A stretch of 21,106 bases of DNA from a bacterium (GTDB lineage Bacteria; Electryoneota; Electryoneia; Electryoneales; Electryoneaceae), in assembly GCA_043801585.1 (NCBI GenBank), contig JAZDLX010000016.1, positions 1-21,106 of the forward strand, written 5' to 3'. A program made the position numbers. Shown here one piece after another: positions 18,001-21,000 of this stretch (its first letter is position 1; every line of letters starts with the position of its first letter).

Positions 18001-21000
18001 TTTTCACGCCTCCTGGCGTTGGTTGCGCCGGATGCGCCTCAAACGTAGTTTACCCGCGTCCTAAACGATCGGTCAACACGGCGGAAGCGGCATGACAACA
18101 CTCACCCCCGCCCTTTCAGCACGGAAACGCGCCATGCAGCAGAATGTCGGCAACGCCGAACTGTGGAAGAAACTGAACTTCCGTTGTGGATTGGAGATCC
18201 ACCACCAGATTCTGACCGAAAAGAAGCTCTTCTGCCACTGCCCCGCCGGAGTCTATACCGACGAGTGGCACGCGGAGGCGCTGCGTCACATGCGTCCTAC
18301 CCTGTCCGAACTCGGCGAATATGATGGCACGGCGTTGATGGAGTTCAAGACGAAAAAGGAGATCATCTACCGGCTGAACAGGAACACGGTCTGCACCTAT
18401 GAGATGGACGACAACCCGCCGTTTCTGATCAACGACCAGGCGGTGGACATCGCACTGACCATCGCCCTGGCTCTCAAGTGCAAGATCGTCGGCGAGTTAC
18501 ACATCATCCGCAAACAATATCTGGACGGCAGCATCCCCGCAGGATTCCAGCGCACCGCCATCGTAGGCGTGGACGGGCAGATCGAACTGAGTTCAGGCAA
18601 GGTTGTATCGATCATCCAGCTCGGACTGGAGGAAGATGCCTGCCGGGAAATCTCCGACCGCGGTCATCTGATCATCTTCAGCACCGACCGGCTGAGCATG
18701 CCGATCATCGAGGTAGTGACCGGCAACAACCTCGCAACCCCCGAGGAAGCCGCCGAGGCGGGAATGCGTATCGGCCGGTTGCTGCGGGCGACCCAGCTCG
18801 TGCGCAGGGGCATGGGGTCGGGACGGCAGGATGTGAATGTTTCGATTGAAAGCTCCACCCGTGTCGAGATCAAGGGTGTTCCCCGCATCCCCCGCATTCC
18901 CGAACTGACCGCTCTCGAAGCCATTCGCCAGCAGCGGCTGATCGCGCTCCGGGACCGTCTCCAGGAAAGGGGATTCAAGCCGGGCGAGGCTCCCGGCGAG
19001 GAGGTTCCGTTCAAAGCGCGTCCGGGAGACTTGAACCGTCCGGAACTGTCCGCGGCGTTGCGCGCCGGAGACAACGTTCGTGTGGTCAAGATCCCCAGAT
19101 CCCGCAAAATTCTGAACTGGGAACTCTCCGGTGGCCGGACCTTTACGGACGAACTGGCGGGCCGTGTGCAGGTGATCGCCTGCCTCGACCAGATGCCGAA
19201 CCTCTTTCACACCGATGGTCCCGCAGGTGGGCTTGACCCGGAGGATCGCGAACGGTTCGCCAAAGCCGCCAATCTTGGCCCGGAAGATGTAGCCGTGATC
19301 GTGTATGGTAAAGACGAGGACACCCGGACCGCCGCTCAGGAAATCCTGATCCGTTTCGCGGAAGCAACCGCCGGTGTTCCTGGAGAAACCCGCCAGGCGC
19401 TGCGCAACAACGCCACAGGCTTCGAGCGCATTCTCCCGGGTCCAGACAGGATGTACCCCGACACGGACAGCCCGCCTTACGAAATCGCCGACGAACGAGT
19501 CGAAGAAGCTCGCAAACGAGTGCCGGAGGTCCCCTGGGTGCGTGAGGAACGTTACCGAAAACTCGGTCTTCCCGAAGATGTGCTCTGGCGTCTCGCAATC
19601 AGCCCCTACGCCGCGCTGTTCGACCGCCTCGTGAAAAAGAAGGCGGTTCCCCCGATGCTGGCGGGTGAAGTGCTGACCCGTTTCCTCGTCTCCGCACGGC
19701 GCAAAGGTGCGGATGTCACCGTGCTGAATGAAGAACATTGGGAAACACTGTTGCGTGCGTTGGGTTCCGGTACGATTTTCCGTGAGGGCATCTACGCGAC
19801 ACTCTCGCTGTGGTGCAAAACGCCGGAAGCGAGTCTGCACGAGGTGATCGAGCGGTTAGGCATGGGCAAGGTGGTCAGCGACAACGATCTTGAGAAGACA
19901 GTTAAAAAAGCCGTTGCGGTTGCTCAGCAAAGCGTCATGAGTACGGACGGCGTATTGGTCGATGTGGCAATGGGCGAAGCGATGTCCGAACTTGCGGGAC
20001 GAATTCCCGGTCGAAAAGTACGCGAATCGATCCTGAAAGTTCTGGCGTAAAGCACAGCCGGAAATCGTCGGAGCCTGGATGAACATTGAAAAAAGACTTC
20101 TCTTCAGCCTCTTTGCCCTGCTGATGATCTTTGTCATCGGAACCATCGGCTATTTCCTCCTCGAAACCAACTGGTCCGTTCTCGACTCCCTGTACATGAC
20201 AATGATCACCATCAGCACAGTGGGATTCCACGAAGTGCACATGTTGAATCCGAATGGACGTTTCCTGACGATGTTCCTGATCATCTCCGGGTTGACAGTC
20301 GGAGCCTATGGTATTACCAACCTCACCTCGTACATCGTCAGCGGACAGATTGTGCAAACCCTGAGGGGAAGGCGCATGGAAAAACGCATTCAGTCTCTTC
20401 GCAAACACATCATCGTCGCAGGATTTGGAAAACTGGGCCGTGAGATTGCGGAAGAGTTATCCGAGGCGGAAGCGGATTTCGTTGTCGTCGAACAGGACGA
20501 AGAACACTGTGAAGCCGCCGAGGAAAAAGAATTTATGGTCATCCGCGGGGATGCCAGCGAGGAGGAAACCCTCGAACGTGCCGGTATTAAAAACGCCTAC
20601 GCGCTTGTCGCCGCTCTGACCGGCGACGCTGGAAACGTGATGGTGACAATTACAGCGCGTGAAATGAACCCGGGCCTTTATATCGTCGCGCGCGGGATCG
20701 ACGATAACAGCCTGAAGAAACTGAAACGAGCGGGCGCCGACCGGGTGGAGATGCCGTTCAAGATCTCAGGAAAACGGTTGACGACACTCGTACTGAAACC
20801 GGGCTTTGTTGATTTCATCGACCTTTTCAGCCGCACATTCGCCCGTGACCTGCAGATGGAACAATCGATCGTGCCGCCGGGAAATCCCCTCGTCGGCAAA
20901 ACCCTCGCCGGTCTGGACCTTCGGAAGAAAACGGGTGGCTTGTTGGTGCTCGCCGTCGAACGGGAGGACGGGCAGATCATTCTCCATCCGACTGGGGACA

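Follow-up and report, generated by a model that had tools for sequence, protein, structure and literature searches.

Reviews treat GatDE as the only glutamine route of archaea, and passages in five papers (PMC2811023, PMC2330236, PMC2943598, PMC8007984, and PMC9499178) describe it as an archaeal enzyme; PMC2811023, PMC2330236, and PMC9499178 bear out the survey's finding that reviews assign GatDE to Archaea. One evolutionary model places GatDE in LUCA and has it lost from bacteria (PMC9499178). Passages on the archaeal system give A1-U72 as an identity element of GatDE (PMC2330236, PMC2943598), so that a statement the survey had made is in print, and they report A73 in archaeal tRNA-Gln (PMC9499178), a GXXAXGX tail motif for archaeal GatDE (PMC2811023), and His15, Glu157, and Glu184 as the Mg-site residues of Methanothermobacter thermautotrophicus GatE (PMC2330236).

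Bacterial GatCAB, whose GatB subunit has the same catalytic core and chemistry as GatE, works with U1-A72 tRNAs, the pair found in nearly all GatE-bearing hosts considered here. An extra D-loop base is given as an antideterminant for bacterial GatCAB (PMC1635274), and U1-A72 has been called absolutely conserved in GlnRS genomes (PMC3927822). Thermus thermophilus and Deinococcus radiodurans, which have GatCAB and AsnRS, resemble the present case in that an amidotransferase is kept despite a direct synthetase; they are described as retaining GatCAB for want of asparagine synthetases (PMC2330236), a reason that does not apply here because both glutamine synthetase and asparagine synthetase are present.

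Here we describe a gatE gene in a bacterial contig, where the window is the whole stretch of DNA analyzed (21,106 nucleotides). The gene is a real and new bacterial variant of a known enzyme, and co-adaptation of a tRNA to it is unsupported. Our literature search, which had subscription journals and supplements outside its reach, found no paper on bacterial GatDE. Databases already name such proteins from metagenome-assembled genomes (MAGs) GatE, and the gap is therefore one of interpretation and not of annotation.

An intact GatE

Model scores, alignments, and structure prediction confirm that positions 18092 to 20050 encode an intact GatE, with the following features.

18092..20050, plus strand: called open reading frame of gatE (652 aa), free of internal stops
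18164..18979, plus strand: first part of the GatB/GatE catalytic (kinase/transamidase) core, from alignment to 2d6f
18200, 18629, and 18710, plus strand: Mg-site residues H37, E180, and E207, from alignment to 2d6f
18980..19375, plus strand: GatE-specific AspRS-like insertion domain, residues about 297-428 of the AlphaFold model
19616..20044, plus strand: helical/YqeY-like tRNA-binding tail, residues 509-651 (PF02637, E 4.6e-11)
20079..21089, plus strand: potassium-channel gene (Ion_trans_2 and TrkA-N/C), the 3' neighbor, outside the GatDE system

The likely start is the ATG at 18137, which would give 637 aa, because the three closest homologues (P0002-P0004) are 637 aa long. The survey had called the protein a full-length GatE, and it passes both NCBIfam GatE cut-offs (NF003107, 505 bits against 456; TIGR00134, 440.5 against 319.55), whereas its scores against the best GatB models (159 and 133 bits) fall far below the cut-offs of 338 and 315. 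Its best PDB matches are the GatE proteins of Pyrococcus abyssi (E 1e-95) and M. thermautotrophicus (E 2e-92). Residues H37, E180, and E207 correspond in the alignment to His15, Glu157, and Glu184 of the latter, and these Mg-site positions are kept in at least 93% of both bacterial-type and archaeal GatE sequences. The AlphaFold model (pLDDT 84.5) superposes on 2d6f with Z 35.1 and rmsd 4.3 over 509 aligned residues; its insertion domain matches Escherichia coli AspRS (1c0a) with Z 12.8 and rmsd 3.0 over 121 residues, and its tail matches the GlnRS N-domain (Z 10.4) and YqeY (Z 8.7).

The protein compares with archaeal GatDE (2d6f, 1zq1) in domain order, fold, Mg-site residues, AspRS-like insertion, and YqeY-like tail, and relatives of this genome carry a partner GatD with the N-domain and asparaginase motifs. 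It differs in belonging to a clade with invariant residues of its own, for example YLDGSIP and RMYPDTD where archaeal proteins have VIDGSNT and RMYPETD. The archaeal GxxAxG tail motif is absent from the GatE of this genome, as from the bacterial type generally: a crude pattern found it in 1 of 132 bacterial-type rows against 22 of 57 archaeal ones. The hosts differ as well, having U1-A72 tRNA-Gln and, nearly always, GlnRS or GatCAB besides. From GatB the protein is set apart by its score below cut-off, its insertion domain, and the missing GatA and GatB-level matches in the genome; bacterial GatE is paired with an asparaginase-like GatD and not with GatA and GatC.

Distribution and phylogeny of bacterial GatE

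The survey's counts for the family were reproduced in full (GatE in 15 of 15 other genomes, GatD in 15 of 15, GlnRS in 14 of 15, and GatA in 4 of 15). Named homologues such as Candidatus Electryonea and Hatepunaea point to Electryoneota as the probable phylum. Across the phylum, GatE occurs in 47 of 79 genomes and in seven of nine families, 43 of the copies lying over the cut-off, as had been reported, and 4 being split or broken. Beyond the phylum, a scan of GTDB genomes returned at least 564 relatives, the best 80 of which come from Ignavibacteria, Bacteroidales, Aminicenantes, KSB1, Zixibacteria, Gemmatimonadota, Acidobacteriota, Myxococcota, Cloacimonadota, and others. All 80 loci listed by a scan for the bacterial signature motif were GatE, 76 from titled bacteria, 3 from Thermoplasmatota, and 1 unnamed, and the 80 listed by the matching archaeal scan were all from titled archaea.

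In a FastTree phylogeny rooted on bacterial GatB, 62 bacterial rows (support 99) were sister to 70 archaeal rows (97), and a quick C20 tree of 58 rows gave the same split (bacterial type 98, archaea 95). This split is not proof, because the bacterial and archaeal rows were picked partly by motif. When the bacterial type was constrained to join four Thermoplasmatota, the resulting tree scored 21.7 log units above the quick C20 tree (p-AU 0.76). Longer searches over 433 columns favored the deep split by 24 to 62 log units, but of the four nested alternatives only one was rejected, and that with just one of the two models. Bacterial-type GatE has clade-specific invariant residues in the catalytic domain, and it has three diagnostic residues in common with GatB (Y143, P149, and V209), archaeal GatE one. 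In three Thermoplasmatota (G180 to G182, loci L458, L463, and L519) a bacterial-type GatE is the sole member of the GatB/E family; G180 also has a GlnRS-sized PF03950 match. One tree places the three as the basal branch of the bacterial clade.

Together, the scans and trees show a distinct, old bacterial GatE clade, spread over many phyla, usually as gatE-gatD, and apart from archaeal GatE. By this phylogeny the label "archaeal-type" is too strong for the GatE of this genome, which is an ordinary member of the bacterial clade; its tRNA switch adds nothing. The archaea-only statement in passages of the 2008-2022 reviews is overturned by a conserved gatE-gatD clade that spans many bacterial phyla, and the same clade makes the model of a LUCA origin followed by bacterial loss, as worded in PMC9499178, testable. 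Inheritance of bacterial GatE from LUCA is the favored but tentative reading. The clade also raises the question of what GatDE does in cells that have GlnRS or GatCAB and a tRNA-Gln without the archaeal identity pair.

GatD, the conserved partner

As the survey had stated, the assembly, which is 92% complete, has no match to GatD. The sister genome (G014) has a gatD with intact asparaginase catalytic motifs, preceded by tRNA-Gly(CCC) and a further two genes. The block of upstream gene, tRNA-Gly(CCC), and gatD in G014 runs beyond the point where contig C141 of this genome (G000) stops; the end of C141 cuts the first gene of the block, and tRNA-Gly(CCC) is missing from this genome too. The simplest reading, for these two reasons, is that gatD is probably missing through an assembly gap after the end of C141, and the gene would sit in the unassembled stretch beyond.

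GatD is found in 48 of the 79 phylum genomes, and 45 of the 47 GatE genomes have both subunits; gatE is co-inherited with GatD. In this family (loci L023-L037) gatD is unlinked from gatE and adjoins tRNA-Gly(CCC) in 11 of 15 loci. Each of two bacterial sets, which have a few contigs in common, shows gatD immediately 3' of gatE in 60 of 80 loci. No other conserved neighbor of gatE was found. Two gatE copies are broken by TGA stops, at G010:C33:547245-549133 and G052:C2:14467-15129; G052 also has an intact gatE and two gatD genes.

GatDE beside other routes to Gln-tRNA(Gln)

The survey had proposed an archaeal-type route standing beside GlnRS. A real GatE does occur in a genome with GlnRS and without GatCAB, but the protein belongs to a separate bacterial clade, and the sole GluRS found has a discriminating-type Arg. 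Of GlnRS this genome has, as reported, a piece of 46 residues where C7 ends (the whole gene is in G014), and AsnRS is present as a PF00152 match of AsnRS size. The reported lack of GatA and GatB was also upheld, the best GatA match in this genome (219.5 bits) being a secreted-type amidase with an RR leader and no match reaching GatB level.

Among the 47 phylum GatE genomes, 25 have GlnRS only, 16 GatA only, 5 both, and 1 neither (G023, 87% complete). For other phyla we drew 50 GatE genomes from the best 80 GTDB loci; 46 have GlnRS (42 over cut-off and 4 fragments), 18 have GatB, and 3 have neither. Neither gene was found in G179. Of five near-closed GatE genomes, four have GlnRS, and the closed genome G184 is without it. 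The GatE genomes that lack both GlnRS and GatCAB are MAGs, which would fit incompleteness. With a second Gln-tRNA route in 46 of 47 phylum genomes and 47 of 50 from other phyla, GatDE is accessory. GatE and GatA are both absent from nine GlnRS-only phylum genomes, though two of the nine have GatD and may be incomplete, and repair is therefore not needed by all.

At its anticodon-reading position the single GluRS found has Arg, as do the GluRS1 enzymes of relatives and of Helicobacter pylori; the non-discriminating Thermotoga maritima enzyme has Lys. The Arg residue is described as not decisive in every lineage (PMC3927822). Judged by this residue the enzyme may be discriminating and make little Glu-tRNA(Gln), and a main indirect route would be left without obvious supply. 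The archaeal pathway is the sole route, without GlnRS and with a non-discriminating GluRS; here GlnRS is present and the GluRS signature, suggestive only, is of the other kind. Complex prediction for GatE(20-480) with the genome's own GluRS gave no informative model (score 0.00). Most phylum genomes without GlnRS carry two GluRS-family genes and GatCAB, and in G048 the second of these genes encodes Ser where the signature has Arg.

Amide synthesis was followed in five genomes. Glutamine synthetase is present in all five, and its lack was rejected as a reason for GatDE. An archaeal-type asparagine synthetase A lies in the region G000:C32:1862-2830 (L156:1480-2451, minus strand; NF005054, 394 bits against 309) and recurs in G014, with G003, G008, and G041 lacking it; classical AsnA is in none of the five, and AsnB-like genes occur in this genus. 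Because glutamine synthetase and asparagine synthetase A are present, missing amide synthesis does not explain why GatDE is retained.

We favor, at even confidence, the reading that bacterial-type GatDE is an accessory salvage or backup amidotransferase acting on Glu-tRNA(Gln) beside GlnRS. The gene would encode its tRNA-binding kinase subunit. By homology to the archaeal enzyme, for which these steps have been shown, GatE would bind aminoacyl-tRNA and phosphorylate the acidic side chain with ATP, and GatD would deliver ammonia from Gln or Asn through a tunnel. The substrate, more weakly, may be Glu-tRNA(Gln) read without need for A1-U72; it is favored, on indirect grounds, because the tail and insertion are kept, because tRNA-Gln-type genes lie 5' of gatE at four loci, and because three archaea have this GatB/E type only. 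GatDE would then repair or top up Gln-tRNA(Gln) and not provide its main supply.

Odd tRNAs upstream of gatE and other possible substrates

At four loci (L073, L078, L487, and L638) gatE is directly preceded by a tRNA-Gln gene or by one derived from tRNA-Gln. At L487 (3196-3270; G179:C340) and L638 (1578-1653) the tRNA-Gln-derived gene has an A1.A72 mismatch, a UUA (ochre) anticodon, and a pyrimidine at position 37. The two tRNAs have 6 differences and the GatE proteins share 75% identity. Two normal tRNA-Gln genes are present in G179 as well, and at L638 gatD is not adjacent to gatE. In Holophagae, L078 (4188-4263; G109) has a third tRNA-Gln-like gene with a CUA (amber) anticodon and an odd loop, and L073 (5839-5913; G104) has an identical second copy of tRNA-Gln(CUG). 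These Holophagae genes are possibly integration scars, since such an upstream gene is absent from 24 close relatives.

Bacterial GatDE could instead have moved to another job, amidating the acidic residue carried by some other tRNA, perhaps a dedicated one, or supplying tRNA-coupled amide synthesis for a non-ribosomal end, which we regard as a serious though less likely alternative. GatE presence is nearly independent of the Gln-tRNA route (30 of 42 phylum genomes with GlnRS, 17 of 37 without), the clade-specific invariant residues in the catalytic domain are many and could reflect another substrate, the archaeal tail motif is nearly gone, and one lineage (L487, L638) carries an odd tRNA with an unpaired first pair and a UUA anticodon upstream of gatE. 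Against this, a tRNA-Gln-like gene precedes gatE at only 4 of the loci scanned, it is missing from all 24 close relatives of L078, 21 of which had room for it, and gatD is the only conserved neighbor. A private odd tRNA was also missing from G000, G014, G003, and G008 by covariance model (150 of 477 candidates scored), and a relaxed ARAGORN search gave only noise among the matches listed; a hidden private tRNA in this genome was accordingly rejected as a candidate on the covariance result.

In a wider version of that idea, which we consider unlikely, bacterial GatDE would be the sister of all archaeal GatDE, retained from the last common ancestor by FCB-related bacteria and by others that are mostly uncultured, and would now act on a tRNA substrate outside the main ribosomal Gln-tRNA supply; for some lineages this would be a private tRNA whose first pair is unpaired.

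It is very unlikely that GatDE takes the place of GatCAB in making asparagine by amidating Asp-tRNA(Asn). A GatB match is missing from 32 of the 50 other-phylum GatE genomes, and classical AsnA from all five genomes tested, but the genus has the archaeal-type asparagine synthetase A over cut-off and AsnB-like genes, and 21 phylum GatE genomes also carry GatA. The AspRS has Leu at the non-discriminating signature position, where we take non-discriminating bacterial AspRS to have His. In archaeal GatDE, moreover, the insertion domain is reported to block AspRS binding (PMC2943598).

tRNA-Gln and the A1-U72 pair

Both tRNA-Gln genes are as the survey had described them: tRNA-Gln(UUG), at C213:670-743, has A1-U72, and tRNA-Gln(CUG), on C72, has U1-A72. 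The change in the UUG gene is common to both genomes of the genus (this one and G014) and, as claimed, restricted to it among the 69 phylum genomes with a UUG gene among the matches listed. The UUG gene keeps the bacterial G73 and has an extra D-loop base, so that archaeal substrates, with A1-U72 and A73, are matched by neither gene.

The survey went on to tie A1-U72 to GatE, and this did not hold. In the phylum, 37 of 39 GatE genomes with a UUG gene among the matches listed, a list without G073-G078, have U1-A72, as do all 47 of the 50 sampled GatE genomes of other phyla that yielded a real tRNA-Gln. Conversely, a scan for U72 tRNA-Gln(UUG) returned at least 120 stretches, 78 of the 80 listed being A1-U72 genes, from Pseudomonas, Burkholderiales, Acinetobacter, Clostridia, Bacilli, and others (L179-L258); GatE was found in none of 50 genomes with such a gene and GatB-level matches in 34. 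A1-U72 as a GatDE signal was thus rejected in both directions. That A1-U72 tRNA-Gln(UUG) is common in bacteria is at odds with the wording of PMC3927822, which concerns GlnRS genomes, whereas those counted here were picked by their tRNA, whatever their GlnRS status.

An indirect archaeal-type route beside GlnRS, with tRNA-Gln(UUG) switched to A1-U72 to suit GatDE, is highly improbable. The double change is real, is present in both genomes of the genus, and reproduces the archaeal determinant (PMC2330236), but it is a single event, G73 is retained, the distribution of A1-U72 runs against it in both directions, and the clade residues of this genus' GatE are the same as in its U1-A72 relatives. 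Our literature search found no account of GatE residues touching base pair 1-72. The change is best read as independent drift in a GlnRS-charged tRNA freed from GatCAB.

Genomic setting of gatE

The gene is native to this genome and, compared with the sister genome, under purifying selection: in a comparison of 560 codons, 288 match exactly, 196 carry synonymous differences, and 76 encode another residue. The idea of archaeal contamination, or of an orphan relic without GatD, was already largely refuted and is scarcely credible: GatD is missing from the assembly and the TGA-broken gatE of G010 shows that loss does happen, but the contig carries bacterial genes and five tRNAs, its sequence from 14.4 kb to the contig end is 77-84% identical to a genus-level relative with flanks syntenic with relatives, gatE GC3 (0.71) lies inside the neighbors' range (0.58-0.80), the protein nests within members of its own family in the tree, and the gap at C141 explains the missing gatD.

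Clustering of gatE with the potassium-channel gene was seen at 15 loci, nearly all within the family. Phage and plasmid collections held no bacterial-type GatE, matches being GatB-level plus one archaeal replicon, and mobile carriage was rejected on this ground. A search of sequencing runs returned no RNA dataset among the matches listed, and DNA datasets with small shares only.

Elsewhere in the window, tRNA genes for Ala, Gly, Cys, Leu, and Val lie at 267-2274 (minus strand) upstream of open reading frames that by eye are IF-3-like and L20-like. Two proteins are without Pfam or NCBIfam match: one of 404 aa at 4671-5885 (plus strand), by eye secreted and outer-membrane-like, and one of 190 aa at 5985-6557 (minus strand), by eye nuclease-like. 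A REP-associated tyrosine transposase lies at 13458-13961 on the minus strand (NF047646, 111 bits against 80). Divergent from gatE, at 14457-17819 on the minus strand, is a nucleoside salvage string of a NupC transporter, thymidine kinase, probable uridine kinase, and cytidine deaminase.
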